Shown here piece by piece: positions 448 to 40,392 of a DNA stretch of 64,000 nt. A program made the position numbers and the translations under genes. The stretch is from a virus (taxonomy: Duplodnaviria; Heunggongvirae; Uroviricota; Caudoviricetes), in IMG/VR virus record IMGVR_UViG_646311924_000007, positions 1 through 64,000 of that record; one strand, 5' to 3'. The notes below the pieces were generated by a model. The model was not told the origin of the DNA, ran no database searches, and saw nothing but the letters and a program-made list of their open reading frames with translations. How positions within the stretch are numbered: the first letter of the stretch is position 1; each line of letters starts with the position of its first letter.

Positions 448-843
448 ATGTTTAATGGCCTGACAGATGCCAAGGTAAACGCCTTACTGAACGACGCAAA
501 ACAAAAAGCTGCTAACCCTGGAACGAATGAAAATGAACGTGCTATGGCTGTTGCAATTTGGGAGTTAGCAGAAGAAGTAAAGCGAAACCGCTTACTATAC
601 ACTCGGGTTTACCAGCAATTTGATGGTGCGAGCTGGATAGATATCGAAGAGGCTGAATATGCAACATGCAAAAAAGAAAAAAAGATTGTTCGGATTTTGC
701 ATAAAGCAGCAACCCCAATCACTGTAGAAATCCCCGATCACAGATATTTCGAGAACGATGATCTACCAGGGGATGTGATTCGAATTATTGATGAGATACT
801 TCATGAACAAGGCTTAACTGTTAAAATTACGCATAATAAATGA
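448..843 (+). CDS. hypothetical protein (131 aa), stop codon overlaps the cre ATG (ATGA)
   Basis: ORF in an AT-richer patch; translational coupling to cre; no recognisable domain. Confidence 0.5.
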   Translation: MFNGLTDAKVNALLNDAKQKAANPGTNENERAMAVAIWELAEEVKRNRLLYTRVYQQFDGASWIDIEEAEYATCKKEKKIVRILHKAATPITVEIPDHRYFENDDLPGDVIRIIDEILHEQGLTVKITHNK

Positions 844-1871
844 CTAATTCGTTAACCGTTCACCAAAATTTGCCTGCATTGCCGGTCGATGCAACGAGTG
901 ATGAGGTTCGCAAGAACCTGATGGACATGTTCAGGGATCGCCAGGCGTTTTCTGAGCATACCTGGAAAATGCTTCTGTCCGTTTGCCGGTCGTGGGCGGC
1001 ATGGTGCAAGTTGAATAACCGGAAATGGTTTCCCGCAGAACCTGAAGATGTTCGCGATTACCTTCTATATCTTCAGGCGCGTGGTCTGGCAGTAAAAACT
1101 ATCCAGCAACATTTGGGCCAGCTAAACATGCTTCATCGTCGGTCCGGGCTGCCACGACCAAGTGACAGCAATGCTGTTTCACTGGTCATGCGACGGATCC
1201 GAAAAGAAAACGTTGATGCCGGTGAGCGTGCAAAACAGGCGCTGGCGTTCGAACGCACTGATTTCGACCAGGTTCGTTCACTCATGGAAAATAGCGATCG
1301 CTGCCAGGATATACGTAATCTGGCATTTCTGGGGATTGCTTATAACACCCTGTTACGTATAGCTGAAATTTCCAGGATCAGGGTTAAAGATATCTCACGT
1401 ACTGACGGTGGGAGAATGTTAATCCATATTGGCAGAACGAAAACGCTGGTTAGCACCGCAGGTGTAGAGAAGGCACTTAGCCTGGGGGTAACTAAACTGG
1501 TTGAGCGATGGATTTCTGTCTCTGGTGTAGCTGATGATCCGAATAACTACCTGTTTTGCCGCGTCAGAAAAAATGGTGTTGCCGCGCCATCATCCACCAG
1601 CCAGCTATCAACTCGCGCCCTGGAAGGGATTTTTGAAGCAACTCACCGATTGATTTACGGGGCAAAAGATGACTCTGGTCAGCGATACCTGGCCTGGTCT
1701 GGACATAGTGCCCGTGTCGGTGCCGCGCGAGATATGGCCCGCGCCGGAGTTTCAATACCGGAGATCATGCAAGCTGGTGGCTGGACCAACGTAAATATTG
1801 TCATGAACTACATTCGTAACCTGGATAGTGAAACGGGGGCAATGGTGCGCCTGCTGGAAGATGGCGATTAG
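840..1871 (+). CDS. cre: Cre tyrosine site-specific recombinase (343 aa)
   Basis: Translation matches P1 Cre almost residue for residue as I remember it (MSNLLTVHQNLPALPVDATSDEVRKNLMDMFRDRQAFSEHTWK...); adjacent loxP. Confidence 0.97.
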   Translation: MTNSLTVHQNLPALPVDATSDEVRKNLMDMFRDRQAFSEHTWKMLLSVCRSWAAWCKLNNRKWFPAEPEDVRDYLLYLQARGLAVKTIQQHLGQLNMLHRRSGLPRPSDSNAVSLVMRRIRKENVDAGERAKQALAFERTDFDQVRSLMENSDRCQDIRNLAFLGIAYNTLLRIAEISRIRVKDISRTDGGRMLIHIGRTKTLVSTAGVEKALSLGVTKLVERWISVSGVADDPNNYLFCRVRKNGVAAPSSTSQLSTRALEGIFEATHRLIYGAKDDSGQRYLAWSGHSARVGAARDMARAGVSIPEIMQAGGWTNVNIVMNYIRNLDSETGAMVRLLEDGD

Positions 1872-1888
1872 CCGTTTATTTGCGCTTG

Positions 1889-1905
1889 ATTGCTCTAATT
1901 ATTTG
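1889..1905 (+). promoter_or_regulatory. C1 repressor operator-like site (ATTGCTCTAATTATTTG)
   Basis: 15/17 match to the P1 C1 operator consensus ATTGCTCTAATAAATTT, immediately upstream of ORF 1922. Confidence 0.6.
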
Positions 1906-1921
1906 ATATTTATGGTGACAC

Positions 1922-2233
1922 ATGCGGAAGGATTTCAAAATAGACGGAAAATATGTGGTGCTGTCTGTAAGCTCTCAAATTCAGTCACCATCTGTCATGG
2001 TCACCGTAAAGTTGAGCGATAGGATGCCTGATATCGACTCGATATCTGTTGCGTTCCCCGTTAAAAGCATGCGGAGTGCTGAACATTTTGTGATGAATGC
2101 AACGGAGGAGGAAGCGCGGCGCGGGCTTACTAGAGTGATGGCGGAATTTGGCGAACTCCTGGGTAAGGTAAACAATGCCCTTTCAATCAGTTCAGCAAGA
2201 TCCAAAGCGTTAACAGCTTCCATGATGAAATAA
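1922..2233 (+). CDS. hypothetical protein (103 aa) behind a C1 operator
   Basis: ORF with ATG start; operator upstream; no HNH or other motif seen. Confidence 0.45.
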   Translation: MRKDFKIDGKYVVLSVSSQIQSPSVMVTVKLSDRMPDIDSISVAFPVKSMRSAEHFVMNATEEEARRGLTRVMAEFGELLGKVNNALSISSARSKALTASMMK

Positions 2234-2257
2234 AAAAAGCCTGGCAAGGAGCCAGGC
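2233..2257 (-). terminator. hairpin GCCTGGC-AAGGA-GCCAGGC with U-run on the minus strand
   Basis: Stem-loop followed by a T-run on the minus strand, downstream of the minus-strand ant-like gene. Confidence 0.5.
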
Positions 2258-2445
2258 TGCACAAAAGAGCGGGTTTGTATTCCGCATCCAATCAATCAAG
2301 AAGGAGTATAGCACACAGGTACTGAAGTAAAAATGTGATAAACATGAAATGAAATATCTTCTATTGCTCTAATTTGGAGGTATAATTGAGCCGCAGTTTT
2401 AGTCAACTACAAAAACATTGCCATTACAGACTCCGTGACATCATT

Positions 2446-2469
2446 GGCGGCCTAAAGGCCGCCTTTTTT
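2446..2469 (+). terminator. rho-independent terminator GGCGGCC-TAAA-GGCCGCC-TTTTTT
   Basis: Perfect 7-bp stem plus T6 run on the plus strand. Confidence 0.7.
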
Positions 2470-2471
2470 AA

Positions 2472-3587
2472 TCACTCAGCCGCTACAGGCTTTAATAAAC
2501 CAGCGTCAAGCAGCTTACGCGTCAACCACTGTTGGCCTTTCCCCGTTAGCTGGGGCGTCAACCGTATCTGGTAGCCATCTTCATCATCCAGTACCACTTC
2601 TTTCACCGTGAAATACCCGGCGTTGATGTATTGCTGGAACGGTACATTTTTACGTCCGCCAGACGCAATCAGGATGCCGTTCTCACGCAACCAGGCAAAC
2701 AGTGCGTTTTGCTTCAGTCCAACAACCTTTGCAAAATTCCCAATCAGGATCCCCTTAGCCACTGATACCCGGTCGGCAAAATCGACTTTAGGGGCTGCGG
2801 CCACCAGCTGCTGATTTAGCTGGTGGGCTTTCTGTTCCAATAGTTGCTTTTGTTCAGCCAGCTCGGCAGCCAGGCGTAGGGCTTCTGGTAATGTTTGGGG
2901 GATTGCGACCGGTTGCTGTTCTTTTTGTCGGAAGTAGCTGTCTTCCAGTTTTTCAAAGAATGCCCATGCCTGATCGGTTTCGAGCATTTTAGCGTGACGG
3001 GCAGCTCCTCGTTCTGTCCACAGGATGAGAGAGCGCGCTTTGGGGGAGACTGGATTTTGTGAGTAGTTTAAAGCTACCCGCAAATTTTTCAGCTCATCGC
3101 CAATAACCTTGAAAAAGTGCTTCCCTTCAACAAAGCGTACTTTGTTCTCATGATGATTTTGGCGAATACGGATTGTTTCTGTCCCATACCCTCTAGCAAG
3201 AGTCTCGGTTGTCACTACACGCACTCCCAGCCATTCCAGAACGGGAATTTCATCAGACTGATTCTGAACAACCACCAGCTCTGACTCCTGAACTGAAGGC
3301 GCATGAACTTTTTCTGATTTAACGTTAGTTGCTTTCATTCTGTGTGCCTCCTTGCGTGTTTCGGCTGCGACGGTTGCGTAATTCAGATGACCCTGTTCGA
3401 GCAGGTATTCGCGGATATCAGACAGCAGGATGCGGTGAACCGCGTTCTTGTCCTTTCTCCGGTAAAGTTGTTTGGTGATCATGAAGTAGTTGGCTATAAC
3501 GCCTGGTATATCCCTGGTACTGATACAAGCAGTGTGCTGTTCAATTGCCTCGATCATCTCTTCACGGGTGACTAATGACGTTCTCAT
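2472..3587 (-). CDS. antirepressor-like protein with Rha-like central domain and KilAC-type C-terminal domain (371 aa from the ATG overlapping the icd stop)
   Basis: N-terminal 90 aa and C-terminal 120 aa nearly identical to the ant product at 40942-41979; central part differs and resembles phage Rha regulatory proteins; ATGA overlap with upstream icd-like gene. Confidence 0.75.
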   Translation of the reverse strand: MRTSLVTREEMIEAIEQHTACISTRDIPGVIANYFMITKQLYRRKDKNAVHRILLSDIREYLLEQGHLNYATVAAETRKEAHRMKATNVKSEKVHAPSVQESELVVVQNQSDEIPVLEWLGVRVVTTETLARGYGTETIRIRQNHHENKVRFVEGKHFFKVIGDELKNLRVALNYSQNPVSPKARSLILWTERGAARHAKMLETDQAWAFFEKLEDSYFRQKEQQPVAIPQTLPEALRLAAELAEQKQLLEQKAHQLNQQLVAAAPKVDFADRVSVAKGILIGNFAKVVGLKQNALFAWLRENGILIASGGRKNVPFQQYINAGYFTVKEVVLDDEDGYQIRLTPQLTGKGQQWLTRKLLDAGLLKPVAAE

Positions 3588-3805
3588 AGTCCCTCCTGAG
3601 CACAAGCGTTTACAGGGAGGCACCAGTAACTGAGAGAATTGCGCAAATCGGTAGAAAAACGGGCGGAGAAAATGCAGGGAGCATCCGGAAGCTGAGAGCG
3701 AGCCTCATCTTCTGTCGGTGCAATAACGAAGTGATAGTGACGTTTCTGGCAGGAGTAGAAGCGCCAGATGAATTCAGGGCGTGCGCAAGGATTGGCATTA
3801 ACCAT
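3584..3805 (-). CDS. Icd-like protein (73 aa), second copy
   Basis: MVNANPCARPEFIWRFYSC... paralogue of the icd product at 40724-40945; same length. Confidence 0.75.
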   Translation of the reverse strand: MVNANPCARPEFIWRFYSCQKRHYHFVIAPTEDEARSQLPDAPCIFSARFSTDLRNSLSYWCLPVNACAQEGL

Positions 3806-3838
3806 AGTTACGGCCTCATGTACAGGTTTAACAACCTG

Positions 3839-3919
3839 CTACCCGCTGTCAAACAGGTGGCAGGACGTGACGGGGTTGACAGACTGGCGTACATGAAACC
3901 AGCAGGCCGAAGCCTCCCC
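3839..3919 (-). ncRNA. c4-like antisense immunity RNA, variant specificity (approximate bounds)
   Basis: Mirror image of the 40610-40690 region with substitutions confined to mutually complementary elements (CATGTAC vs GTACATG; stem CTGTCAA/TTGACAG). Confidence 0.55.
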
Positions 3920-4121
3920 ATCACGCCCCACCATAATTTGGGCGTAACGCGGTTTTACGGACATAAAAATACCGCAATATCGGAAATCTGCGGTTATCCG
4001 CATGTACATTCAGGCTGTCAAACCCGGTCGCAGAATTTGCTACGACGGTGGAACTATAAGCCTGAACGACGGGAAGATCAATAGTCTGGTGTCAATGGTA
4101 GTATTTTTGCCCCAATAAATC

Positions 4122-4138
4122 AAATTCATTAGAGCAAT
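4122..4138 (-). promoter_or_regulatory. C1 operator-like site (minus strand ATTGCTCTAATGAATTT)
   Basis: 16/17 match to C1 operator consensus, upstream of the c4-like/icd-like/ant-like module. Confidence 0.6.
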
Positions 4139-4246
4139 ACAAATCTGGTTGAATGTTTCCTCTCCGAGGTTGCAATGTGCACACTTATTGTTTTATTTGT
4201 ATGCACTAATAAATATATTATTTTTAATGATAAATGATTGACAACT

Positions 4247-4270
4247 GACAAGTGACTTCAGTCAGAATCA
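4247..4270 (+). promoter_or_regulatory. putative late promoter (GACAAGTGACT element plus -10-like CAGAAT)
   Basis: Same AACAAGTGACT-N5-TAnnnT arrangement recurs upstream of prt, lyz, pmgC-like and the capsid-like gene. Confidence 0.4.
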
Positions 4271-4398
4271 TCACACGCCCGGTACGGATGGATCCCTTTT
4301 CAAATATTCCATGGACGGCACAGTCTGAGTACCGGGCGCTACCTTCAGTTGTATTGCTAAGCCGCCGCTGGTGGCTTTTCTTTTTTGTAGGGGGCGCT

Positions 4399-5040
4399 AT
4401 GGATAAGAAAATATGCGTTGTTTCGATGAGCGTCGGCAAACCGGCGTCAATGACTGCTGCATGGATCAACAACGAGCTGATAATGGCTGAGCGGACCAGC
4501 TACCCTGAACGCCGCCGCGATATGGAACTCCAGCTGCTGCGCGAATTGCGAGAAAAAGAGGAAAAGGGTTTTATCGTGCTGGTGGAAGAGGAAAACAGCT
4601 TTATTACTGGTCGAGTTGGCCAGCGTGTAAGGTTGCGCGATCCCTTCATGAACGGCAGGCCGGTACTGATTGAAGCAATGCAGATTTACAAGGAGCTGGA
4701 ACGCCAGAAAGCGATCAAGTTACCGCGCAAGGAATCCGGCAAATACATCCTCCACCAAAGCATCTTCGATTCCGAACACGATAAAAAAGGCGATGAATTT
4801 TTCAACATCAACTGGAGTGAAATAACGACAGAGCATGTTCTGACGTTACTATGTTGCTTTGCGACGGAATACAACAACGTTGCCAGCGCCGACTACATCA
4901 GGGCAATGGCTGGAGAAGTTGAGGCCCGCCAGGAACCATCGTTACTAAGCCCTCTGATTAACATAATTCGCGGAACCCAAACACTGGCGCAAAAACAAGT
5001 ACCACGAGGGGAATTGACGGGTAAAGGTAATTATCTCTGA
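4399..5040 (+). CDS. hypothetical late protein (213 aa; longer ORF from 4252 unlikely)
   Basis: ATG at 4399 with GGGGG RBS; late-promoter-like element upstream; no domain recognised; could correspond to P1 mat by position. Confidence 0.45.
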   Translation: MDKKICVVSMSVGKPASMTAAWINNELIMAERTSYPERRRDMELQLLRELREKEEKGFIVLVEEENSFITGRVGQRVRLRDPFMNGRPVLIEAMQIYKELERQKAIKLPRKESGKYILHQSIFDSEHDKKGDEFFNINWSEITTEHVLTLLCCFATEYNNVASADYIRAMAGEVEARQEPSLLSPLINIIRGTQTLAQKQVPRGELTGKGNYL

Positions 5041-5079
5041 AAGATGCCCGGCGACAGACCGGGCAAAAGGGCGGAAAGT

Positions 5080-5328
5080 TTAATCAGCATTCAGGAGCAA
5101 TGCGTTATCTATGATGATCTGCTCCCATTCTTCGAATGCCCGATCGCGGACGCCCTGGGGAACGCTGTTAGTTTTGAAATCGACGACCGTCCGCCATTTC
5201 CCGTCCGGACGGTACATGCGCAGAGCTTTACTTCCCCCTTCCCTGCGCACCTCAACGTTATGCTTGTCAGCAAACTCTTGTAATGCTCGTAGCGTCCCAT
5301 GCTTTACTGTGTAGTATCGCTTTTTCAA
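5080..5328 (-). CDS. lxc: Lxc/Bof-like C1 co-repressor (82 aa)
   Basis: Size and position downstream of ulx-like and darB as in P1; assignment by synteny and length. Confidence 0.55.
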   Translation of the reverse strand: MKKRYYTVKHGTLRALQEFADKHNVEVRREGGSKALRMYRPDGKWRTVVDFKTNSVPQGVRDRAFEEWEQIIIDNALLLNAD

Positions 5329-5765
5329 GTTTTCTCTCCAGCCTGTGCCAAGGCTTCAACTTCCAAATCGTAAGACTCAAACTCATAGTCCTGGTCGTCA
5401 ACTTCTTCAGGCACTGGCAGTAAATGCCAGGCTGAGTATATCTGACCATTATCAAAACGCTCCTGGCTGTAGAGCGTCGCGGCTATGAGTGTTAGCGCCG
5501 GGCGGTCATAACGGTAAATTTTGCGAACGTCACGGTCAACGAGACGACCGAAATTACCATAACCGCGCTCCAGTAATAATTTTTTAATTTCCGGCCAGTA
5601 TGGGCCATAGCTGCGGTACAGGCGGGGATTTTTCAGTAATCGCCCACGTAGCCCTGACAGGAAGAAATCAACGTATTCGTCTTCTGTCTTTCCTAACAAC
5701 GCCGTACGCAGTACCGCCTCAAGATATGTTTTATTCGGTTTTATTGTATCAGATAGTGTGGCCAT
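5325..5765 (-). CDS. ulx: Ulx-like protein (146 aa)
   Basis: Position between darB and lxc; synteny-based. Confidence 0.5.
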   Translation of the reverse strand: MATLSDTIKPNKTYLEAVLRTALLGKTEDEYVDFFLSGLRGRLLKNPRLYRSYGPYWPEIKKLLLERGYGNFGRLVDRDVRKIYRYDRPALTLIAATLYSQERFDNGQIYSAWHLLPVPEEVDDQDYEFESYDLEVEALAQAGEKT

Positions 5766-5798
5766 ATTATGCGACGCCCGGCGAACCGGGCGCTCCTG

Positions 5799-8700
5799 TT
5801 ATGCGTATTGTTGGATGACGGCCAGAACGTCCGCCACGTTGTGTTTTGTCTCGATAATCCACCAGTTACCCGGGAAATCGCTGTTCTTCGCCTTCGCTGG
5901 CAGCCAGCGAGCGCCGAATTTCGCCTTGATTGCGTCTTTCGCACGGAAAAGAACGCCTTTCATGCCTGAGGCTTCCTGAAGCCCAAATACCTCGCCAGCG
6001 GCGAATTTTGGTGCGTACATCATCTTCAGGTCGGCGGTGGATACGCGATAATTCAGACCAAGAGACTGAGCTATGCTGGTGGCATCACCCTGTATTGATG
6101 ATAACTCTTCTTGTTTCTCGTTTCTGGCGGCAATTTCTTCCTCCGTGATGTTGCCAAGGGCCAGGTTTATCCGATCAGCGTCGGCCTGTTTCTCTTCATC
6201 GGTGCGCCCGGCAAGAACCGTGTTAATTCTCTGCAATATCTCCACATGATTCTTGCGCATGCTGAGCAATTCCGGCGTAACCTCGTTAAGATCCACCAGC
6301 CCAAGGATGGCAAGGTCGGAAAACATTGATACCAGGTTGTAGGTCATGCGATAGCTGAGTTGACCATAGGCTGATGGCAACTTCACCGCATCCATTTGAT
6401 AGGCATCCATAAATTTAGAGCCGTCGTTTACGACATCCGCAATTGCAGGTGTGATTTTCCCTGTGGTGGCGGCCTCCCTGATTGCTGTTACCCACGATTG
6501 AGTCAGTGCGGCGACTGCATGATTCAGATTGGCTTCCCGTTCTGCTGCGATACGCGCGCTTGCTGCGTCCATTGCCTGCTTGATCTCGGCTTTATTGCTG
6601 TAAATGCCAATGGTGCCAAACTGTGCTGTGGTGATCTCATAATCTGACGCCCGGAACTCATGGGTACCGAAAATGGCATTGGTGACCTCAAGTTCAGAAT
6701 CCCCGTTACGAGTAGCCCCCTGGCTTGTTTTCTCCGGCATTCTGGCGATCGCATCCGCTATTTTCTCCTGAATTGCTTCAGGGGATAGCGTATCTCCATA
6801 TGACGCGATTACATCGCCATAATTGGAGCCAAACAGTTCAGTCAGGAATACTTCTGCCAAACGGACCTGGCGGTTATTCCCTTCAGACATCATACCAAGC
6901 ACCCATTTTGCAATTGACGACTTCAGCGCGCCGTCACGGCGATCCGGGTAAACCGCATGCTTCAGTGGGTCCGTATAGGTACCAACAAAATCAATGCTAT
7001 AGCCTGACTCTGTAGTCTGAACGCCGTATGAGTCAGTGATTTTGATCATGCCGCGCTGCTGGAAACGGTAGAAATCGTCACAGGAAATGATGTCGTTAAT
7101 CCCGGCGATGGAGACGCCACCACTGATTTTCTGCATAACAGCATCTTCATCGGGAGTTACATCAACCTGTTTATCCAGCGTCTTCACATCCCAGTTACCC
7201 GATTTGGTACCTTTGAAGGTAAAGATAATCTCCACGTCTGCGCGCTGGCTGTCGAAGTCCAGCGACTTAATGCGAACGATATCACCGGCACAATCGTAGT
7301 ATTGGCCTACACGCCATGAGCGATCGCCGATAATAAGGAACTCACTCGCATGGTTAACCAGGTCAGGATCAACATCCAGAATGCCTTTATTTATTGCATC
7401 CTCCACCAGCGGGCGAAGGCGTTTGATATCCGTCGCGGCCTTCTGAGTACGGTTCAATAATTTCTCATAGCGGGAGATGGCTTGAGAGATATTAGCCTTG
7501 CGCTGAATGGCGCTTTTCAACGACGCGCGATACTGTGCTAACAACGTACGGTCTGTGTGATGGACGCTACCCCAGCGGGCTTTCCAGTCTGCGTTATCAG
7601 CTGCTTTGGCCATTACCGCCTGTTTGAATTTGGCGACGTCGGCGGTGGTCTTTTCGAGTTCCGCTTTTCTTCGCTCTAATTCAGCGGTAAGCACCTCCAC
7701 ATCCTCACCAGCTGCGTGCTGCGCCTTGATGTAGTTCTGAAGGTCGATAGTAGCCTGTTCTTTCTGGCGAGCGCGTTGCGCGGCTTTCGCCTTATCCATT
7801 TGAACCTGCATCATTGCCAGACGTTCGCCATCATCCTTAGCGGTATACATCTGCATTTCGATCATATCGTTGGCGTCGGCGTTCTCCATTTCTGACTTAT
7901 CTGAACGGAGGATATCGGAGATCCAGCCTGCTTTACGCTTCAGCGTCTTCAGTCGGTATTCATCGAAAGAACCCTTGCCGCAGTAGTAGTGAACGCGAAC
8001 GCTTGCACGGTTGGAACCAACTCGGGCACCGCGACCGTTACGCTGTGCGATACTGGCTGGTGTCCATGGCAACGTCAGATGATGGATGTCAGTCGTTCCT
8101 CGATGCAGGTTGATACCCACCTCTGCCTTTTTGTTGCAGATGATGATCGGAGTCCGGCCCTCCTGGAAGTCGGCAGCAATCTTTTCCAGCCCGCCCAGCG
8201 ACATTTCATTTTGCTGCGCGATATAGGCGTCATACAGAGCCATTTGCTCGTTGTATTTCGCTATCTGTGCATCTGTTGGTTCATCCGGTAGCTCTTTCGG
8301 CGGTTTAACCGCTTTCAGTTTCTTACCGGTTTTACCTGCCTCGGCAACCGTCTGAGCATTCAGTATCCCCACCTTTGAAGGTTCAAGGTTAAGAGCATTG
8401 CAGATAATGCGCTTGAGCTTCTGGTGCTGCGTTTTTTCATCGGTGAAGATGATTTGCTTACCTTCCGGGAAAAACTCCTTCAGCGTGGCAATCAGCTTCG
8501 CGTATTTGGGCGTAACGGGGTGAGTTACGGTCTGTTCGTCAATGCCAAACCTGGCCAGGCGCTTATTCACTTCCTGCTCGAACGCTTCCGGAACCTGCAA
8601 CTGAATAAACTCGCCCTTATCTATCAGGGAGTATTGCGATTGCTGCGTGATTGAATCATCACTGTCGTCGTCTTCGCTGGTGGCTTGTTTAGGCAAACTG

Positions 8701-11700
8701 TCCGCCAGCTGCTGCACCGCATCTGCGTACTCCGGCAGGAAACGATAGGTGATCCGGCGATAGTACAGGTCCATGTCAGTACATACGCGGTCCATATCCC
8801 TGATTATTGAGAAGATCGGACGGGCTTTCTCGTGCTCAATCACGCCGTCTTCATTGACCGAGGTCGTTACGCCATTGTTGGCTTTGGCCGCCGCTTCCGC
8901 CTGCTGACGCAATTCTTCATACGCCGCCAGTTGTTCTTCAGTAAGTGGTGCATCCTGCTGGTGTTCGTCCAGCTCCGGGATCTCCACGGTATCCTTAACG
9001 TCTTCCGCCGTTTTAAGCGTTACCCAGCGATGGAATATACCGCGCAGCGCATCAAGGTTTTCAAAGCCCACCAGCGCCATTTTTTCTTCAACTTCACCGC
9101 TGATTTTCTGTACCGTTTCCAGCCTGGTCTTGCCGAAGAATTTAACGAAGTCATCAGGACCGTAGATCCCCATCTTCTGCCAGTATTCCTTCGGCAGAAC
9201 ATGAGAAAGCATGTTGTATGCATCGATCGGGGTGTTAACGACTGGCGTTGCAGTCAGGAGAACCGGCCCGCGCCCGCCATTCTTTTTCATCAGGTACGCG
9301 TTTTTGATTGCCATATCCCGCGCCGATTGCGCCACCGCGCTGGTGGGCAGATAGGCCAGTTGTGACGCTTCGCGACCATTTTTATAGCTATTGCGGTAGT
9401 TGTGACCTTCGTCGGCGATCACACTATCGAAGCCCATATCCTCAAAGTACGGATACTTCTCTGCTTTTTCGGTACCGGTATCTGAATACTCCGACAATAC
9501 CCAGCGACGCGCCGCCTCTTTACGATGGGAGTCGGAATCCATTGCGCTGGCTACGCGCCCGGCGGCAACGAAGTCATAAAGCATGTCTTGTGCATGCTCA
9601 TCTACGGTGTCATCACGTAGCGGAATGCGGGCGTATTGTTCTTTGGTAAACACGACTGCACGGTAATTTGAGTGCGGGATCGCGTTCATCCGCGCCGTGA
9701 TAGTGGCTTCATCTGCCAGCTTAAGAGCATCGCGCATAACTGGAGTGCCATCAGTACCAAGAACAGGTTTACCGTTCTCATCGAGCACCGGCACCTGGCG
9801 AATCTGATCGCCATCCATCAGCACATCAAGACCGACGAACAGGTAGTTACTGAATGCCTCTTCACTCAGGAACTCTTTTGCTTCGTAATACCAGTTTTCC
9901 AGCACTGATTTAGGCACTACATAAGCAGTACGGGTGGAGCGACCGTTCTCATAGTTGAACGCCTCAAGCGCCAGCGCGGTCGTGGTTTTACCCAGCCCGG
10001 TGCCGAAGCCCAGGATGCCGCGCCCATCTTCGGACAGTCGGCGCACCTCGCTATTCTGGTAATCAAATGGCTGGCGCTTACCGCTTAATCCCTTCAACCC
10101 AAGCGGATCGCCAGAGTGTTCATACGGGATATTGCTATTGAACACATCGTTGTATTTGGCAACCAGCTCATCGTAGCGATCGTGCGTCTTGATCCACTTA
10201 TTGAACTGGTCCTCAAGCAGTGCCATCTGCTCGCGGTAGCCGTTCGCCGTCGCGCTATCTTTGCCACCGATACGCGCACCATTGAGATACTTTTCCAGCT
10301 GTGCCGGGAACCCGGTCGCGTTTTCACCTGATTTACGGTCCCACTCGTAGCGGATCTCGCCTGTTTCTTTATCCTTGCGCTGGACGACACCGTATCGGTG
10401 CCCGACGAACAGACCATCACCACCGTGATAGGTGTCAGAAACCATTTCGTCGCCTTCCAGCTGCACTGACTGCACATAGCGCAGATCCGGATAGCCGTTT
10501 TCCTGCAAAAACTCCAGAATGACGGAGCGGTCGAACCAACGGCTATTGAGCTTAAAGCGGATATTCTCTGCTGGCGTCTTGATGCGCTTCTCTTCGATCG
10601 CTGCCAGCTGATTAAGGACGTTGTTCTTTACTGGACCGTCGGGGAGCGTGGCGAGGAATTCCTGTTTTGGAGCCACTATCTCGTTAATGTCGCCGCTGGT
10701 GGCGCGGGCGAACGGAACAATCCCGCCATACGGTGAAACCACAATGCCAGGGGTGCTGGCCAATAAATTAAGCAACTCATCATCACTGGCTGGCAGTTCG
10801 CCGGTAAACGCAAGGCGGAAATCATCGAGCTGGATTGGATCGCGAGTGAGATCACTGTAGAGATAACGCAGGGTGTCCTGATAGCTGGTGGAGTCATAAC
10901 TGGCGCTGGAATCATGCGTAACCAGTTTTCCTGTCAGCTCGTCAGAAATAGTGCCATCCAGCTTAATTGCACCACGGAAAGCAAACCAGGCGCGCGCACC
11001 GCTCCCCGATAATTTCGCTATCGGACCGCGACCGGGGTTACCAAAACGGTCAATCTCTGCCTGCAAACGGGATACCAGAGAAAGGCGCTGCTGTTCGATT
11101 TGTTCAGCACTATGCCCGGCGGCCTTCATGTCCTGATATTCAATTAACATCCGGCCAATCATCGCCCCGCGATACAAGCGTTCACGGTATTTTTCAGGCT
11201 GGCTGTTAATCCAGTCCACCAGCTGCACCATATCGTCGCTGATTGATGTGGTGTACTTATCGCGGACATTTGCCATCTGGGTAAATGTCATGCCGAGACG
11301 GCCTTCTGTTGTAGTCAGGTTACGCTGAAGAGCCTCCCAGCTATCCGCGCCATAACTGGCAGCATCGATCTTAAGTTCCTTCCCGGCATCAGCTTCAATC
11401 CAGCGACCACCAGCATATTTTTGCCATACGCCATTAATCAGGCGCATTTCCCCTTCACCAACAACGTCTGCGGTCGGTGACGGTTCAGCCATATCGAGCA
11501 AAGACCAGTCGATACGGCTTTCGAAACGATGAATCAGCTTCGCTTTAAGAGCCTGGTTATCAATCTGACCGTCGGCACGAACCTCAATACGCCCCCGGAA
11601 GCCCTTTTCTTGGGTGCCATGAACAAACCGGCGGCCATCCTTTTCAAACCACTTGCCAGAAATAAACGTTGGCCAAAGCACATTTGCTGATTCAAGAGTG

Positions 11701-12566
11701 CTTTCATCCACCAGGGGGATTTTCTCAGCCATCTCTGCCGGATGTTTGCGCATCAGCACCACATCTACGACCGTACTGGTCCCGTTTGCGTCAAAAGTAC
11801 CGGTAGGCAAGCGGTGGGCACCAAGAAATTCTGCTTTCCGTGATAGGCGCAGGCGTAACCGCTTCATGTTTGAACCTGAAACAATGGACGGCGGCACAAT
11901 CACGCACATGAATCCGCCTGGCTTTATCTTGTCCAGCATGCGGAGCATGAAGTAAGAACCCATGTCCGTTTCTTCTGCGTAAGGCTTATCGATGTTGCGT
12001 GTGTTATCACGACCGCCGAACGGAACGTTACCCACAACATGGTCGAATGAATCGTTAGGTGTGCTTATAGCCAGCTGTTCGAACGGGGAAATCTGTACGC
12101 TGTCTTCCGGGTGTAACAACTGGTTTATACGACCGGAAACACTGCTGATCTCAGTCGCAGTCATCACCGTACCAACCGGTTTTGTCTCATTAAAAACGCC
12201 GGTGCCCGCCGATGGTTCCAGAGTGTTACCTACGTCCGCGCCGTAGAGCTTCATGATCTCCCAGACACCTTCAGCGATCGGCTTTGGTGTGTAATATTCG
12301 GAGACGGACCCGCCAATGCCGCCTTCACCGGTGTACCCAGCCAGGATCTGGCGCTGTTCATCTGTCAGTGTCGCGCCGTCCACCAGTGAATTAAGCAAAT
12401 CTATCGCCTTCTGATTCGCCTCCCGGCGCAGTCGGTCATAGCTTTTGCCTTCCACCTTTTCCACGCCGTATTTAATCGGCGCTCGGTGAGATGTTATTGC
12501 CCTAATGTATTTCAATATTTCGCTGACACTTGAACAGCGAAACACCCCCATAGATAGCTTGTTCAT
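5799..12566 (-). CDS. darB: DarB antirestriction protein (2255 aa) with N6-adenine methyltransferase-like and helicase (GFGTGLGKTT Walker A) regions
   Basis: Giant ORF of the length I recall for P1 DarB; helicase motifs visible; synteny with ulx/lxc and prt. Confidence 0.9.
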   Translation of the reverse strand: MNKLSMGVFRCSSVSEILKYIRAITSHRAPIKYGVEKVEGKSYDRLRREANQKAIDLLNSLVDGATLTDEQRQILAGYTGEGGIGGSVSEYYTPKPIAEGVWEIMKLYGADVGNTLEPSAGTGVFNETKPVGTVMTATEISSVSGRINQLLHPEDSVQISPFEQLAISTPNDSFDHVVGNVPFGGRDNTRNIDKPYAEETDMGSYFMLRMLDKIKPGGFMCVIVPPSIVSGSNMKRLRLRLSRKAEFLGAHRLPTGTFDANGTSTVVDVVLMRKHPAEMAEKIPLVDESTLESANVLWPTFISGKWFEKDGRRFVHGTQEKGFRGRIEVRADGQIDNQALKAKLIHRFESRIDWSLLDMAEPSPTADVVGEGEMRLINGVWQKYAGGRWIEADAGKELKIDAASYGADSWEALQRNLTTTEGRLGMTFTQMANVRDKYTTSISDDMVQLVDWINSQPEKYRERLYRGAMIGRMLIEYQDMKAAGHSAEQIEQQRLSLVSRLQAEIDRFGNPGRGPIAKLSGSGARAWFAFRGAIKLDGTISDELTGKLVTHDSSASYDSTSYQDTLRYLYSDLTRDPIQLDDFRLAFTGELPASDDELLNLLASTPGIVVSPYGGIVPFARATSGDINEIVAPKQEFLATLPDGPVKNNVLNQLAAIEEKRIKTPAENIRFKLNSRWFDRSVILEFLQENGYPDLRYVQSVQLEGDEMVSDTYHGGDGLFVGHRYGVVQRKDKETGEIRYEWDRKSGENATGFPAQLEKYLNGARIGGKDSATANGYREQMALLEDQFNKWIKTHDRYDELVAKYNDVFNSNIPYEHSGDPLGLKGLSGKRQPFDYQNSEVRRLSEDGRGILGFGTGLGKTTTALALEAFNYENGRSTRTAYVVPKSVLENWYYEAKEFLSEEAFSNYLFVGLDVLMDGDQIRQVPVLDENGKPVLGTDGTPVMRDALKLADEATITARMNAIPHSNYRAVVFTKEQYARIPLRDDTVDEHAQDMLYDFVAAGRVASAMDSDSHRKEAARRWVLSEYSDTGTEKAEKYPYFEDMGFDSVIADEGHNYRNSYKNGREASQLAYLPTSAVAQSARDMAIKNAYLMKKNGGRGPVLLTATPVVNTPIDAYNMLSHVLPKEYWQKMGIYGPDDFVKFFGKTRLETVQKISGEVEEKMALVGFENLDALRGIFHRWVTLKTAEDVKDTVEIPELDEHQQDAPLTEEQLAAYEELRQQAEAAAKANNGVTTSVNEDGVIEHEKARPIFSIIRDMDRVCTDMDLYYRRITYRFLPEYADAVQQLADSLPKQATSEDDDSDDSITQQSQYSLIDKGEFIQLQVPEAFEQEVNKRLARFGIDEQTVTHPVTPKYAKLIATLKEFFPEGKQIIFTDEKTQHQKLKRIICNALNLEPSKVGILNAQTVAEAGKTGKKLKAVKPPKELPDEPTDAQIAKYNEQMALYDAYIAQQNEMSLGGLEKIAADFQEGRTPIIICNKKAEVGINLHRGTTDIHHLTLPWTPASIAQRNGRGARVGSNRASVRVHYYCGKGSFDEYRLKTLKRKAGWISDILRSDKSEMENADANDMIEMQMYTAKDDGERLAMMQVQMDKAKAAQRARQKEQATIDLQNYIKAQHAAGEDVEVLTAELERRKAELEKTTADVAKFKQAVMAKAADNADWKARWGSVHHTDRTLLAQYRASLKSAIQRKANISQAISRYEKLLNRTQKAATDIKRLRPLVEDAINKGILDVDPDLVNHASEFLIIGDRSWRVGQYYDCAGDIVRIKSLDFDSQRADVEIIFTFKGTKSGNWDVKTLDKQVDVTPDEDAVMQKISGGVSIAGINDIISCDDFYRFQQRGMIKITDSYGVQTTESGYSIDFVGTYTDPLKHAVYPDRRDGALKSSIAKWVLGMMSEGNNRQVRLAEVFLTELFGSNYGDVIASYGDTLSPEAIQEKIADAIARMPEKTSQGATRNGDSELEVTNAIFGTHEFRASDYEITTAQFGTIGIYSNKAEIKQAMDAASARIAAEREANLNHAVAALTQSWVTAIREAATTGKITPAIADVVNDGSKFMDAYQMDAVKLPSAYGQLSYRMTYNLVSMFSDLAILGLVDLNEVTPELLSMRKNHVEILQRINTVLAGRTDEEKQADADRINLALGNITEEEIAARNEKQEELSSIQGDATSIAQSLGLNYRVSTADLKMMYAPKFAAGEVFGLQEASGMKGVLFRAKDAIKAKFGARWLPAKAKNSDFPGNWWIIETKHNVADVLAVIQQYA

Positions 12567-12577
12567 TGGTAATCCTT

Positions 12578-12600
12578 AACAAGTGACTAGTGTTAAATTC
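12578..12600 (+). promoter_or_regulatory. putative late promoter (AACAAGTGACT then TTAAAT)
   Basis: Conserved element about 45 nt upstream of the portal gene start. Confidence 0.45.
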
Positions 12601-12632
12601 CGTTCAAACACGATGCGAATTATTCTAATTAA

Positions 12633-15363
<2,731 letters not shown>

Positions 15364-15374
15364 CCATCAAAAAT

Positions 15375-15400
15375 AACCCCGGCGGCTGCCGGGGTTATCG
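15375..15400. terminator. bidirectional hairpin CCCCGGC-GGCT-GCCGGGG flanked by A/T runs
   Basis: Stem-loop between convergent pro (+) and the small minus-strand ORF. Confidence 0.6.
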
Positions 15401-15407
15401 TTAACTA

Positions 15408-15662
15408 TTATCGCCTTCGTCTGCGTGCCATATATTTGCGCACCGCGCGACGTGGGCAATCTGAAGCGGTTTCTTTCTGCTGCATCAATCTTGCAGCCAT
15501 GCTCAAAAATGTCAGGCACAGCCGAAGCCCGGCATATAATAGCGGTTCCAGTGGCCACGTCTCATTGAGCACATATACCGCCATGAAAATCGAGTCGAAA
15601 ACTATCGCCGCCAGCGATAACTTCATTGTCGAAAGTCGGCGGAGCTGCCGGAGTTTATTCAT
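15408..15662 (-). CDS. small membrane protein downstream of lyz (possible lysis accessory protein)
   Basis: Hydrophobic segment and Arg-rich C-terminus; overlaps the lyz stop by 8 nt; start uncertain. Confidence 0.3.
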   Translation of the reverse strand: MNKLRQLRRLSTMKLSLAAIVFDSIFMAVYVLNETWPLEPLLYAGLRLCLTFLSMAARLMQQKETASDCPRRAVRKYMARRRRR

Positions 15663-16212
15663 TGATCAGCCCCGTCAGGCAAAGCTGGCGTTCTTTTTCA
15701 CGGCGAATCTTTAAACCTCGCAGGGGCACGCCGTTACTGTTCACAAAATCAGGGAGATGGTTACACATATTCACCCATTCCCCTTTCTGCGCCCACTTGT
15801 GGATGGACGTTTCGACTCGCATGCCTCGCGCTTTGCTGTAGTAGGTCCGTAAGCTATTGCATCCCATATTGAATGCCGCGCTTGTCATTGCACTGAAGGC
15901 ATTATCGGGCATGTCTTTGCCCCGAAAGTGCTGATTAATACAGCGTTCAGCGATCAGGATATTCTTTTCCCAATCAGCGGCGATTTGCTGGTCGGTTTTT
16001 CGCACACCCGGCGTTACCCCGTGTGTATTACCGATCCCGTCAGTCCATACCCCCGCCGGGCACATGTATGGATCACGTCGGCAACCTTCAGCGTTACCAA
16101 TCAGCTCAAGCCCCGCCTGGTTGGTTCGCACATTGCCATTACCCATCACGATGGTAATCATCACCGCGATAGCGCAAATTGCACCGCCTCCTGCGGCTGT
16201 TTTTCCCTTCAT
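15655..16212 (-). CDS. lyz: SAR-type endolysin (lysozyme), 185 aa from MKGKTAAGGG
   Basis: Near-identical to P1 Lyz as recalled, including the N-terminal signal-anchor segment. Confidence 0.9.
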   Translation of the reverse strand: MKGKTAAGGGAICAIAVMITIVMGNGNVRTNQAGLELIGNAEGCRRDPYMCPAGVWTDGIGNTHGVTPGVRKTDQQIAADWEKNILIAERCINQHFRGKDMPDNAFSAMTSAAFNMGCNSLRTYYSKARGMRVETSIHKWAQKGEWVNMCNHLPDFVNSNGVPLRGLKIRREKERQLCLTGLINE

Positions 16213-16295
16213 AAAGACCTCATAAGCGAATTTTTTACGCTCCAGGACAAACACCCATTCACAGCCAATACCGACTGACTCGATCCCTTTAGAAG

Positions 16296-16322
16296 GCACA
16301 GGATAATGCAAATCACTTGTTA
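16296..16322 (-). promoter_or_regulatory. putative late promoter (minus strand AACAAGTGATT)
   Basis: Motif about 100 nt upstream of the lyz start. Confidence 0.35.
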
Positions 16323-16345
16323 GCTACGTTTCAAAGATATACATT

Positions 16346-16362
16346 GTTGCTCTAATTATTTT
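16346..16362 (+). promoter_or_regulatory. C1 operator-like site (GTTGCTCTAATTATTTT) upstream of ssb
   Basis: Match to C1 operator consensus core TTGCTCTAAT. Confidence 0.55.
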
Positions 16363-16381
16363 ATTTTATTAGGTAAGATAA

Positions 16382-16870
16382 GTGGCACAACGCGGTGTAA
16401 ACAAAGTCATCCTGATTGGCACCCTGGGGCAAGACCCGGAGATCAGGTATATACCAAATGGCGGCGCGGTCGGAAGACTCAGCATCGCAACGAATGAATC
16501 ATGGCGCGACAAGCAAACGGGCCAACAGAAAGAGCAAACAGAATGGCATAAAGTCGTTTTGTTCGGAAAACTTGCTGAAATTGCGAGTGAGTATTTACGA
16601 AAAGGTTCTCAGGTCTACATCGAAGGGAAACTTAAAACCCGTAAGTGGACAGATGACGCCGGTGTAGAACGTTACACGACGGAAATTATCGTCAGCCAGG
16701 GCGGCACCATGCAAATGATCGGCGCTCGTCGCGACGATTCACAGTCCACAAATGGCTGGGGGCAATCAAACCAACCTCAAAACCACCAGCAATACAGTGG
16801 TGGCGGTAAACCTCAGAGCAACGCTAATAACGAACCTCCAATGGACTTTGACGACGATATTCCGTTTTGA
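16382..16870 (+). CDS. ssb: single-stranded DNA-binding protein (GTG start, 162 aa)
   Basis: Strong similarity to E. coli SSB including the C-terminal DDDIPF tail; AGGTAAG RBS. Confidence 0.95.
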
Positions 16871-17067
16871 ATGTGTAAAAAACGACTGAAAAAAAAGCGG
16901 TGGTCCAGACGCCGACAAAAGCACGAACTCGCTCAAAAACGCCAAAGTTGGCAATGGCACGCGCTTTTAACGAATAGAACACCCCGAGATATTGCTTTCG
17001 CTGGTGGGAAAACATTCCTAACCAACCTGAAGGCGCAATACATCAGTTTTTAAGCAGAGAAAAGACT

Positions 17068-17856
17068 ATGACAGCACAAAATACTAAAACCATTCAATAC
17101 CGCCTACGTAATGGCCAGAGTGTCGAAGTGACCGTCAATAATGATGGAGTGCCAGGCGAAACGGTTTCTATCTCTGATCTGGCTATCGAAAAAACCATCA
17201 TGTGCCACCTTGGCTTTACTGAAGAAGTGAGCAAAAAGCATGGTGTAGCAATCTGGAGCGCAATGGATACTGGTATGCGCAGATTCATTACTGCTCGTAC
17301 CCCAGGGATGACCATGATGGACCTCATGCAGATTGCGCCGCTGTTTGAGTGTGAACCTTTGGATGTATTCAGCAATCCAGCTATCTGCCAGCAGTTATAT
17401 GGTGAGATGAAACTCGCGGTTACCCCCATTGTGCTGCATGAAGGATCGCTTGCTGGCGTATGGAAAGTAGAGCGAATTTCAAGCTACATGCCTTTCCATG
17501 TCAACGGCGTAATCACTGGTGAAAATCAACCTGTTTCCGTTATAAAGTCAGACCTCAAGCGCGCAATTCTTGAAGCAAGTTGTCGAGTTGTCGGCCTGGG
17601 CAAACAGTCTTATGTTTCCTTCCCGGCTGGCCCTGAAGGCCCGGCAGAAATTCTGATTATGGATGCCGATCTGCTCTGGCAAATACAGTTTCTGATTGGC
17701 AAAAGCATCATCCGCGATGAAGAACTAGATCAGTACATTACCTGCACGATGACGGATGAAGTCAAAAGTGTGGCTATAGCCAATGCCCGGAACCTATGTC
17801 GTGCTGCATTAACAGAACTGCAAGAAAACACCACGGGAGAAGTGGAAAGTGATTAA
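17068..17856 (+). CDS. hypothetical protein (262 aa) downstream of ssb
   Basis: Clean ORF ending at an intrinsic terminator; no recognisable motif. Confidence 0.55.
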   Translation: MTAQNTKTIQYRLRNGQSVEVTVNNDGVPGETVSISDLAIEKTIMCHLGFTEEVSKKHGVAIWSAMDTGMRRFITARTPGMTMMDLMQIAPLFECEPLDVFSNPAICQQLYGEMKLAVTPIVLHEGSLAGVWKVERISSYMPFHVNGVITGENQPVSVIKSDLKRAILEASCRVVGLGKQSYVSFPAGPEGPAEILIMDADLLWQIQFLIGKSIIRDEELDQYITCTMTDEVKSVAIANARNLCRAALTELQENTTGEVESD

Positions 17857-17860
17857 AAAG

Positions 17861-17890
17861 AACCCGCCAATTGGCGGGTTCTTTATTTAT
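17861..17890 (+). terminator. rho-independent terminator AACCCGCC-AATT-GGCGGGTT plus U-run
   Basis: 8-bp stem followed by CTTTATTTATT. Confidence 0.8.
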
Positions 17891-18102
17891 TGAATTAGCA
17901 TTCAACTCCCGATTGTTATAGCGAACACTATGTAACAGAATAATATTATTAACATTTTAGTAATAAGTTGATTATTCATCTTCTGTATTCGCAAAGCGTA
18001 AGTATTGCTCATAGTTTCTTATTCCAGTACATTGTGATTCGTTGAGGCAAAAGAATAGTGGCAATTCTACTGGCAATAAACTCAAGTAAGAGGTTGTAAA
18101 CA

Positions 18103-18390
18103 ATGGAAAAACTGAACAATTTCTTAGACAAAATATCCACCCCAAACACTCGCGCAGGCCACACTATTACCCGCATAGCTAAGCTAAGCGATGCGGGTGT
18201 CAGTGATGACGTAATCGCACTTCAACTGTCCAGTAACAGTGCAAATGGCTTCCGATATACAGCAGATGAAATAAAAGCGTATAAGAAGCTCCACAATGAT
18301 GTAAAAACTAAAGTGGGAATTACATCCAAACAAACAAAAGCATTAATCAAAGATCAAGAGCTGACTTTTGTTGCATTGCCTCAAAACTAA
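18103..18390 (+). CDS. hypothetical small protein (95 aa) in AT-rich segment
   Basis: ORF with GAGG RBS; flanked by AT-rich DNA. Confidence 0.45.
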   Translation: MEKLNNFLDKISTPNTRAGHTITRIAKLSDAGVSDDVIALQLSSNSANGFRYTADEIKAYKKLHNDVKTKVGITSKQTKALIKDQELTFVALPQN

Positions 18391-18418
18391 ATTTGTTTAA
18401 AGCTATAGCTAACAAAGA

Positions 18419-18464
18419 GTTATAAGAGCGATAGTGATAAATTTATCATTGTCGCTCTTATAAC
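18419..18464. repeat. 46-bp near-perfect palindrome GTTATAAGAGCGA-TAG-TGATAAATTTATCA-TTG-TCGCTCTTATAAC
   Basis: 13-bp arms plus palindromic 14-bp core read directly; lies between convergent genes. Confidence 0.8.
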
Positions 18465-18593
18465 CTTGTTAAAGATAAGAATATAACCCAAAAGATATAC
18501 ATGGGTTATTAAGGCCATAATTATCAGGCAAATAACATGAAGTCGTCTATGTGATGGATGAAATTTGAACAATCAATTCTATGCCAATTCCTG

Positions 18594-18914
18594 TCAATAC
18601 AAGAGTTGGTTTACTGTTTCATCACTAAAAACCTCTTCATCGTCATCATCATCCTCATCGCCACCATCTACTGCTGGCCAATCAACAAACCAGCCAGCGT
18701 AAAGATGCAGCGTTCGGAGAACATCACTTGCGGGAGCATCAAGGGTGTTAACGAATCCCATATAGCTATTGGGATTTGCCCCAGCTATGGCTTCAGCGAT
18801 CATGTCCTCGGTAATGTCACCGGAGATAATGCTCAAACGCCCGGAAACTTCTTCATTATCATCAAATTCGATAATGGCATCTCCGCCTAATGGCGCTGCG
18901 ATTTTAATCTGCAT
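18594..18914 (-). CDS. acidic hypothetical protein (106 aa) at the 3' end of the dar operon
   Basis: ORF overlapping the ddrB stop; Asp/Glu-rich tail. Confidence 0.45.
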   Translation of the reverse strand: MQIKIAAPLGGDAIIEFDDNEEVSGRLSIISGDITEDMIAEAIAGANPNSYMGFVNTLDAPASDVLRTLHLYAGWFVDWPAVDGGDEDDDDDEEVFSDETVNQLLY

Positions 18915-21891: not shown

Positions 21892-21903
21892 CCCTGTTAC
21901 GCC

Positions 21904-24185: not shown

Positions 24186-24186
24186 G

Positions 24187-26873: not shown

Positions 26874-26881
26874 AGTACATG

Positions 26882-40296: not shown

Positions 40297-40392
40297 TATA
40301 ACCTCACCTGCCTTATAACCCATTTAGGGTACATATTTTCGCCTTTAAAAAAAAGAGGTTATTAGATCCAATTGTGTATTTATTAAGCATAT

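Follow-up and report, generated by a model that had tools for sequence, protein, structure and literature searches.

A second immI-type antisense-RNA cassette, probably orthogonal to the canonical one, in place of Oref and ref in a P1-like phage-plasmid

The stretch of DNA analysed here (64,000 nucleotides, positions 1 to 64,000 of the IMG/VR virus record IMGVR_UViG_646311924_000007; hereafter the window) belongs to a P1-like phage-plasmid and carries, in addition to the canonical immI locus at 40393-41979, a second complete immI-type operon on the minus strand at 2472-4138, adjoining cre. This cre-proximal cassette consists, in operon order, of a C1 operator, a promoter, an a1/b1 leader, the c4 RNA, the a2/b2 targets, icd and ant1/ant2. 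The immI system is the least understood arm of the tripartite immunity of P1, and the heteroimmunity of P1 and P7 is the textbook case of a specificity that is set by a few antisense-RNA bases. Our reading, to which we assign a probability of roughly 0.8, is that the second operon is intact, orthogonal to the resident one and located in place of Oref and ref. The GenBank record of P1 annotates a1 (TTGACAG), b1 (GTTAGTGC), a 77-nt c4, a2 and b2, the a and b elements being C4 binding sites that repress icd-ant translation, and repression of icd-ant by c4 is likewise described in reviews (PMC12197685, PMC8198154).

The cassette, all elements of which lie on the minus strand, begins with a predicted C1 repressor binding site, ATTGCTCTAATGAATTT (4122-4138), which agrees with the consensus at 16 of 17 positions and aligns with Oc4 of P1 (the Oc4/Op51 equivalent). 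A consensus scan of the window revealed six C1-operator-like sites, compared with 0.01 expected; further sites are located at 42058-42074, 57011-57027 and 61310-61337, the last of which is an overlapping divergent operator pair (61310-61326, plus strand, and 61321-61337, minus strand). The sigma-70 promoter TTGATC-17-TATAGT (4053-4081), which was identified by a promoter scan, aligns with the annotated hexamers of P1c4 (P51b), the promoter making c4 in the P1 lysogen, and a weaker P51a-like pair, TTGATT-17-TACCAT, read by eye only, is located at 4095-4123. The leader harbors the a1 element TTGACAG (4015-4021), the P1-type allele according to the P1 annotation and the alignment, which falls within the Rfam c4-a1b1 match, and the b1 element GTACATG (4001-4007), which according to the alignment is an allele of neither P1 nor P7. 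Next comes the 77-nt c4 antisense RNA gene (3856-3932), with b' (CATGTAC, 3889-3895) in a 9-nt hairpin loop and a' (CTGTCAA, 3876-3882) in a 7-nt single-stranded joint. The leader of icd contains the exact 7-nt complement of a', the a2 target TTGACAG (3846-3852), and the exact complement of b', the b2 target GTACATG (3817-3823), which abuts and overlaps the icd Shine-Dalgarno sequence TGAGG; an AGG directly follows b2, and the icd ATG lies 11 nt downstream. The icd paralogue (3584-3805) encodes 73 amino acids with 81% identity to the canonical Icd, and its stop codon overlaps the start of ant1 (ATGA, 3584-3587). The product of ant1 (2472-3587, 371 amino acids) comprises the Ant1 N-terminal region, ORF6N and KilAC, and ant2 (2472-3338) starts in frame at the internal codon 3336-3338, which is preceded by the strong Shine-Dalgarno sequence AAGGAGG. 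All open reading frames (ORFs) of the cassette are intact. The Rfam family C4 (RF01695) matches 3853-3938 on the minus strand with 70.7 bits (gathering score 45), and c4-a1b1 (RF03163) matches 4007-4059 on the same strand with 57.0 bits (gathering score 46.7). The Rfam scan returned no match to isrK (RF01394) in the window; thus the leader of the cre-proximal cassette is not of the isrK type.

The canonical copy lies on the plus strand and consists of a C1 operator (40393-40409), a1 (40508-40514), b1 (40522-40528), the c4 RNA gene (40597-40673; 77 of 77 nucleotides identical to c4 of P7) with b' CACAATC (40634-40640) and a' CTGCTAA (40647-40653), a2 (40677-40683), b2 (40706-40712), icd (40724-40945) and ant1/ant2 (40942-41979), after which comes the kilA operator (42058). 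Rfam C4 matches this locus at 40591-40676 (plus strand, 69.6 bits) and c4-a1b1 at 40470-40522 (plus strand), both above the gathering threshold. A reading of the window made from the sequence alone, before any database search (hereafter the sequence-only reading), had proposed that 2472-4138 is an inverted paralogue of immI. Indeed, a MAFFT alignment of the reverse complement of 2440-4260 with 40330-42010 proved the two copies to be collinear, in agreement with the two Rfam families being recovered at both loci. The positions proposed for the three b-type elements of the canonical copy (40522-28, 40634-40 and 40706-12) turned out to be exact. A four-way alignment, which included immI of P1 and P7, revealed that the canonical copy (40393-41979) corresponds to P7 in every element. 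This copy is exactly P7-type, while in the cre-proximal copy an a element of the P1 type is joined to a b allele of a third kind.

The identity between the copies varies strongly along the alignment, amounting to 64% in the operator/P51a region, 89% from the P51b -35 hexamer to the icd start, 79% in icd (DNA), 66% in the N-terminal part of ant1 and 85% in the C-terminal part of ant, with an essentially unrelated ant centre. Between the P51b-type -35 hexamer and the icd ATG (3806-4085), 30 differences were counted over 280 nt, seven of which are located in or beside the -35 region (4070-4085). Of the remaining 23 differences, 18 fall within six short elements, so that only five scattered single substitutions are left, and the prediction that the differences are concentrated in mutually complementary elements was thereby borne out. 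Three of these elements are 4-nt swaps (TACA/TGTA/TACA in the cre-proximal versus ATTG/CAAT/ATTG in the canonical copy, at 4003-4006, 3890-3893 and 3819-3822), and the other three are 2-nt swaps (GA/TC/GA versus AG/CT/AG, at 4018-4019, 3878-3879 and 3849-3850). The latter had previously been described as a second co-varying stem; the co-variation holds, but the sites do not form a stem and instead represent the a1/a'/a2 element set of the P1 annotation. The scaffold from a1 to the icd start is far better conserved than icd itself, with five differences outside the elements compared with 21% nucleotide divergence in icd.

Two a alleles are found among the four immI-type copies of the window, P1 and P7, namely TTGACAG (P1 and the cre-proximal copy) and TTAGCAG (P7 and the canonical copy), and three b alleles, namely GTACATG (cre-proximal), GTTAGTG (P1) and GATTGTG (P7 and the canonical copy). 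All three sites of each element co-vary between the two copies of the window, and in these same elements only 2+2 nt distinguish immI of P1 from that of P7. The c4 RNAs of the cre-proximal copy, the canonical copy, P1 and P7 are predicted to fold alike into a long tRNA-like stem with a' and b' unpaired (minimum free energy of the cre-proximal c4: dG -44.9), and opening a' and b' is predicted to cost next to nothing (0.2-0.3 kcal/mol). For the pairs within the window, nearest-neighbour estimates gave -11.7 and -11.9 kcal/mol for the cognate b-element duplexes versus -1.6 and -3.2 for the cross pairs, and -8.9 and -9.0 kcal/mol for the cognate a-element duplexes versus -3.8 and -6.7 for the cross pairs. 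Once the opening costs are added, the cognate pairs come to a net -15.3 and -16.1 kcal/mol and the cross pairs to -0.3 and -1.2. Since none of the three sites of a or of b is the same in the two cassettes, their c4 RNAs are predicted to be orthogonal. As a separate observation, GTACATG and CATGTAC (3817-3823, 3889-3895 and 4001-4007) are partly self-complementary (GUAC, CAUG), which in principle would allow self-pairing of c4 loops of the GTACATG type, or pairing of b1 with b2.

At the corresponding site of P1, the annotated gene order is c8, Oref, ref, Omat, mat. In the window, according to the ORF list, cre (840-1871) and c8 (1922-2233) are located on one side of the cassette, and an intact mat (4252-5040), lxc (5080-5328), ulx (5325-5765) and a DarB-like gene encoding 2255 amino acids on the other. 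The homology with P1 ends past the c8 terminator. This GC-rich hairpin (2446-2463), located between ant and c8 at their 3' ends, scores as a terminator on the plus strand (the side of c8) and forms the left junction of the cassette; P7 and phiW39 are again homologous below about position 2470. On the right, homology with P1 restarts at about 4205 with the retained Omat operator (4205-4222, assigned by alignment with ref-Omat-mat of P1 and the P1 annotation), and a unique spacer (4139-4204) separates Omat from the operator of the cassette. Because the P1 homology breaks and resumes at these points, we conclude that the cassette, together with its own operator and the 66-nt unique spacer, replaces only Oref and ref between c8 and mat. 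The operator at 4122-4138 was also considered as Omat itself, which was rejected since a separate Omat is kept. The sequence-only reading had placed the cassette at the site of ref, mat and res-mod; this was right for ref, which is replaced, and wrong for mat, which is retained together with Omat, and res-mod is simply absent. The cassette does not occupy the position of immI (sim to kilA-repL) but is inserted in inverted orientation between c8 and mat, and is therefore a paralogous immI-type cassette rather than the immI locus itself. Megablast matches of the region are P1-like plasmids of Escherichia, Shigella and Salmonella. At 5040-5080, lxc directly follows mat and the EcoP1 res-mod of P1 is absent; the closest plasmids carry a DUF2971 gene at this mat-lxc site, which is likewise absent from the window.

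The Ant protein of the cre-proximal cassette contains, according to Pfam, an ORF6N domain (PF10543, residues 117-201, E=1.3e-19) and an ANT/KilAC domain (PF03374, E=1.5e-31), whereas in the canonical Ant only ANT was found. The two proteins are 55% identical, their ends being conserved (85 N-terminal and 140 C-terminal amino acids) and their centres different. Thus, the description of this Ant as keeping the P1-type N- and C-terminal regions was accurate, but its centre is not Rha-like: in the Pfam scan (E<=0.01), which returned only ORF6N and ANT, there was no match to the Rha family. Over its full length (371 of 371 residues) the protein is identical to the RefSeq entry 'phage antirepressor Ant' of plasmid NZ_CP055201.1. 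Within its ORF6N part, ant shares a 117-nt stretch (3054-3170, minus strand) with the ant genes of many Stx-converting lambdoid phages at 90.6% identity. Sequence similarity of this kind suggests that P1-like and lambdoid antirepressors may have exchanged domains.

For a comparison with relatives, IMG/VR was scanned with patterns of the c4 scaffold carrying Ns at the loops, which yielded 94 and then at least 118 stretches, and the matches listed were combined with P1, P7, pC21-4 and the window to a set of 139 copies, to which the following counts refer. Among these matches listed, there are at least two a alleles (TTGACAG, TTAGCAG), at least seven b alleles (GATTGTG, GTTAGTG, GTACATG, ACTTACG, ACGAATG, ACTTGTG, GTTCAAG) and at least 12 a x b types. 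In 135 of the 136 copies with complete flanks, a1, b1, a2 and b2 all match the c4 of the same copy exactly, and since self-complementarity holds in this many copies over 12 types, the element pattern is not due to chance. The sole exception is a copy of IMG genome 2565956613 (L111), whose b2 is GTTAGTG and whose own c4 is of the ACGAATG type; this b2 fits the c4 of another cassette in that genome, the cre-proximal one (L050, TTAGCAG/GTTAGTG), and there may be cross-wiring between the two cassettes. GTACATG was found almost only at non-canonical positions, and canonical immI holds other alleles. Moreover, icd at non-canonical positions is about 82-85% identical to the canonical icd in all genomes compared, which points to an old paralogous lineage and not to a recent duplication. 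A recent tandem duplication of the resident immI was accordingly rejected, as icd of the two copies in the window is also divergent (79% at the DNA level) and the ant centre unrelated. A scan of species-representative genomes gave three matches, which carry no information on taxonomic spread. An exact enterobacterial c4 scaffold also occurs on a 2867-bp contig of a metagenome-assembled genome labelled Bacillota (JAFAFU010000019.1, L147), which is probably a binning contamination.

The relatives carry two to five cassettes per genome. Among the matches listed, 11 IMG/VR genomes, like the window, have two to four scaffold-type cassettes each, and no type is repeated within any of 14 genomes with two to four scaffold-type cassettes (37 within-genome pairs). 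Some of the co-resident pairs differ in a only and others in b only, a pattern which suggests that either element alone may be able to discriminate. The complete plasmid NZ_CP055201.1 contains three C4-family RNAs with icd-ant pairs, namely a canonical TTAGCAG/ACTTACG, a cre-proximal TTGACAG/GTACATG and a third cassette with an isrK-type leader between pacB and c1, and Escherichia albertii p06-3542 (NZ_CP034163.1, 95.7 kb) contains five C4-family RNAs with icd/ant at five sites, all of different types. Since one cre-proximal cassette is paired with a GATTGTG canonical copy in the window and with an ACTTACG canonical copy in NZ_CP055201.1, we conclude that the cassettes reassort. In IMGVR_UViG_2698536372_000019 (10558-30313; L043 and L038), a TTAGCAG/GATTGTG and a TTGACAG/GTACATG cassette are apparently arranged in tandem between mat and c8. 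By analogy with NZ_CP055201.1, the genome of the window may possess a third, pacB-c1 cassette, which would lie just upstream of position 1.

By homology to P1 and P7, two promoters, a constitutive one of the P51b type and one upstream under C1 control, would give rise to one RNA comprising a1/b1, c4, a2/b2, icd and ant1/ant2, from which RNase P would excise the 77-nt c4 RNA. The exposed b' loop and a' joint of c4 would then pair with the targets b2 and a2 around the ribosome-binding site of icd, and this would prevent translation of icd and, via translational coupling (the ATGA overlap) and transcriptional polarity, also the synthesis of Ant1/Ant2. This c4 mechanism is reportedly owed in part to work by Citron and Schuster in 1990 and by Biere and colleagues in 1992. 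A lysogen with both cassettes would silence incoming ant genes of either specificity, and as a phage the element would carry a second antirepressor that is not silenced by a lysogen holding only one matching c4. Expression and processing of the cre-proximal RNA, the repression, orthogonality in vivo and an action of Ant on C1 are thus what we infer from the known systems; the anatomy of the cassette, its family membership, the covariation, the predicted energetics and the recurrence are observed. The proposal that each c4 acts only on its own message gained support from the Rfam membership, the folds, the cognate and cross energies, the three-site covariation and the differences of types within genomes, and the cassette would accordingly add a second specificity and a second antirepressor to the genome.

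We consider the second immunity cassette genuine and probably orthogonal, and several observations have to be weighed against this conclusion. The energies of the duplexes describe loop-loop contacts only crudely, by nearest-neighbour estimation, and the c4 of P1 paired with the cre-proximal target, with which it shares the a element, gave intermediate values of -6 to -7 kcal/mol; because of this shared element, orthogonality is less clear toward P1 than toward P7. Under random draws from the pooled type frequencies, the absence of repeated types within genomes has a probability of P ~0.005, which is derived from a naive null that ignores shared ancestry and position-specific lineages, and the distinctness of co-resident types may be partly historical rather than selected, GTACATG being nearly confined to non-canonical positions. 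In addition, the operator carries an A->G substitution at position 12, which may affect the predicted binding of C1, and Ant, with its different central domain ORF6N, could have a target other than C1. This last point leads to the most serious rival explanation, since the ORF6N centre is common to the Ants of Stx phages: c4 control would operate as proposed, but Ant would hit the repressors of other prophages (for example lambdoid or Stx phages) or have a KilA-like activity directed at the host and thus serve in warfare between prophages. The ORF6N centre, unlike that of the P1/P7 Ant, its 117-nt stretch shared with Stx-phage ant and the up to five stacked cassettes in relatives, seemingly more than control of C1 would need, fit such a role. 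We nevertheless regard it as unlikely, given that the 85 N-terminal amino acids specific to Ant1 and the C-terminal KilAC are conserved with Ant of the P1/P7 type, that the C1 operator is kept and the operon is in the C1 regulon, and that ORF6N-type Ants are also located at pacB-c1, directly beside c1, in RCS47 and NZ_CP055201.1.

The cassette could also be a passenger, a relic of recombination between two co-resident P1-like plasmids that is neither expressed nor selected. P1-like elements recombine readily, variation is known to concentrate in the region of c8-mat and res-mod (PMC6906374), and about 93% of the P1-like plasmids in PLSDB lack the cassette. However, the intact ORFs and the perfect self-complementarity of the RNA elements argue against decay, the same junction is found in 48 plasmids of E. 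coli, Shigella and E. albertii, and the identical cassette has persisted through reassortment with different canonical types (GATTGTG in the window, ACTTACG in NZ_CP055201.1), which makes a mere relic improbable. Even less probable, in our view, is a lack of orthogonality, in which the swaps would be tolerated drift, both c4 RNAs would repress both messages via the scaffold or a protein cofactor and the second copy would provide only redundancy or dosage. This explanation is in line with the near identity of the scaffold outside the elements, but P1 and P7 are heteroimmune although their immI loci differ at the same elements by so few nucleotides (PMC6906374, PMC12197685), the predicted binding of the cross pairs in the window is weaker by about 14-15 kcal/mol, the match of three sites in 135 of 136 copies would not survive drift, and co-resident types never coincide.

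The cre-proximal cassette has its elements in the same order and at the same spacing as immI of P1 and P7, and its c4 has the same scaffold and fold, in which a' and b' would pair with a2 and b2 at the icd ribosome-binding site; the a1/b1 leader, the ATGA overlap of icd and ant1 and an ant2 start inside ant1 are shared as well. The cassette differs in being inverted at c8-mat, where it coexists with a canonical immI, instead of being located at sim-kilA, in combining the P1 a allele with the GTACATG b allele, and in the ORF6N centre of its Ant. A further known arrangement is the extra ant cassette of RCS47 between pacB and c1, also noted for pTZ20_1P and present in NZ_CP055201.1 and p06-3542, which contains an icd-ant pair, a C1 operator and a C4-family RNA (L139:1100-2807 in RCS47; L141:9588-11163 in NZ_CP055201.1). 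With the cre-proximal Ant, its ORF6N-KilAC Ant shares 86% identity (90-92% at the DNA level), but the similarity starts only within icd, and these cassettes have an isrK leader (RF01394), a divergent C4 RNA and unrelated a and b elements, which were read by eye as TTGAGA and GTCAAAGG. Matches to isrK were found by Rfam only at the pacB-c1 cassettes of RCS47, NZ_CP055201.1 and p06-3542. For pSvP1, the description in PMC6906374, from which this plasmid is known here, reports extra icd-ant genes in the cre-mat-res/mod region and a modified canonical immI. Phage D6 has the same c4 scaffold with a self-matching TTGACAG/ACTTACG, as a single cassette beside repL with a Roi-like antirepressor. The phage vB_EcoM-Ro157c2YLVW carries a self-matching TTAGCAG/GTACATG cassette at the same mat-proximal site; its record starts inside the cassette, and the genes are annotated as hypothetical. 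Other phage small RNAs that gate a lytic switch of the antirepressor or antiterminator type are IsrK/anti-Q of the Salmonella prophage Gifsy-1 and sar/ant of P22 (PMC4825925, PMC12197685). IsrK belongs to a different leader family, whereas the cassettes of the window match c4-a1b1, and sar is a true cis-antisense RNA without an a/b loop code.

In PLSDB, 694 records with cre-c8 represent P1-like plasmids, about 48 of which, from E. coli, Shigella and E. albertii, have the same c4-mat junction. The 280-nt leader was found in 574 PLSDB records at 681 places, and 40 records contain at least 80% of the window region 800-6000 in one place. In four plasmids, a c4 region with 100% identity is located at this very position, so that the novelty which the sequence-only reading had seen in a second module at this site does not hold. 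Homologues of icd-ant1/2 are mentioned in passing for region RD-1 of pSvP1 by Venturini et al. 2019 (PMC6906374), who also report an ant inserted between pacB and c1 and give no analysis of c4. The literature search, directed at a described second immI, at several copies of c4 and at novel c4 specificities, yielded no more than these passing remarks, which is not proof of absence, and the topic of extra cassettes is absent from the surveys and reviews of P1-like or phage-plasmid genomes that it covered. Within the literature searched, the analysis of a/b specificity appears to be new. The single locus is not unique and would not surprise a specialist on P1; the series of alleles and the stacking seem to be unexplored.

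These results suggest that the two classical specificities cover only a small part of a longer series of alleles and that P1-like elements in nature often carry several cassettes which differ in predicted specificity. A tentative extension, with the balance tilting slightly away from it, is a combinatorial antisense 'immunity barcode', in which at least two a and seven b alleles on an invariant c4 scaffold, in addition to an isrK-type scaffold, would form two to five orthogonal cassettes that are stacked in one genome as the consequence of an asymmetry. A resident would have to match every cassette of an invader, whereas an invader would need only one unmatched cassette to break immunity, and this asymmetry would drive allele diversification and the accumulation of cassettes; the GA/GTACATG cassette of the window would then be one extra key. 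If the cassettes are orthogonal in vivo, this would explain coexistence, exclusion and induction among these common carriers of resistance genes and make it possible to predict, from the sequence, the immunity groups of hundreds of sequenced phage-plasmids. Synthetic biology would also gain a ready set of small RNA repressor/target pairs that are orthogonal and share one scaffold.

Upstream of cre, megablast homology to P1 and RCS47 starts only at about position 837, and no loxP is located within the window. A 131-aa ORF (448-843, plus strand) ends 4 nt into cre and is preceded by a 73-aa ORF (207-428). The other Rfam matches in the window are IS009 (26954-27152, minus strand, 192 bits), the sok antitoxin RNA downstream of the kilA-repL region (44128-44302, plus strand) and three tRNA genes (61992-62235, plus strand).

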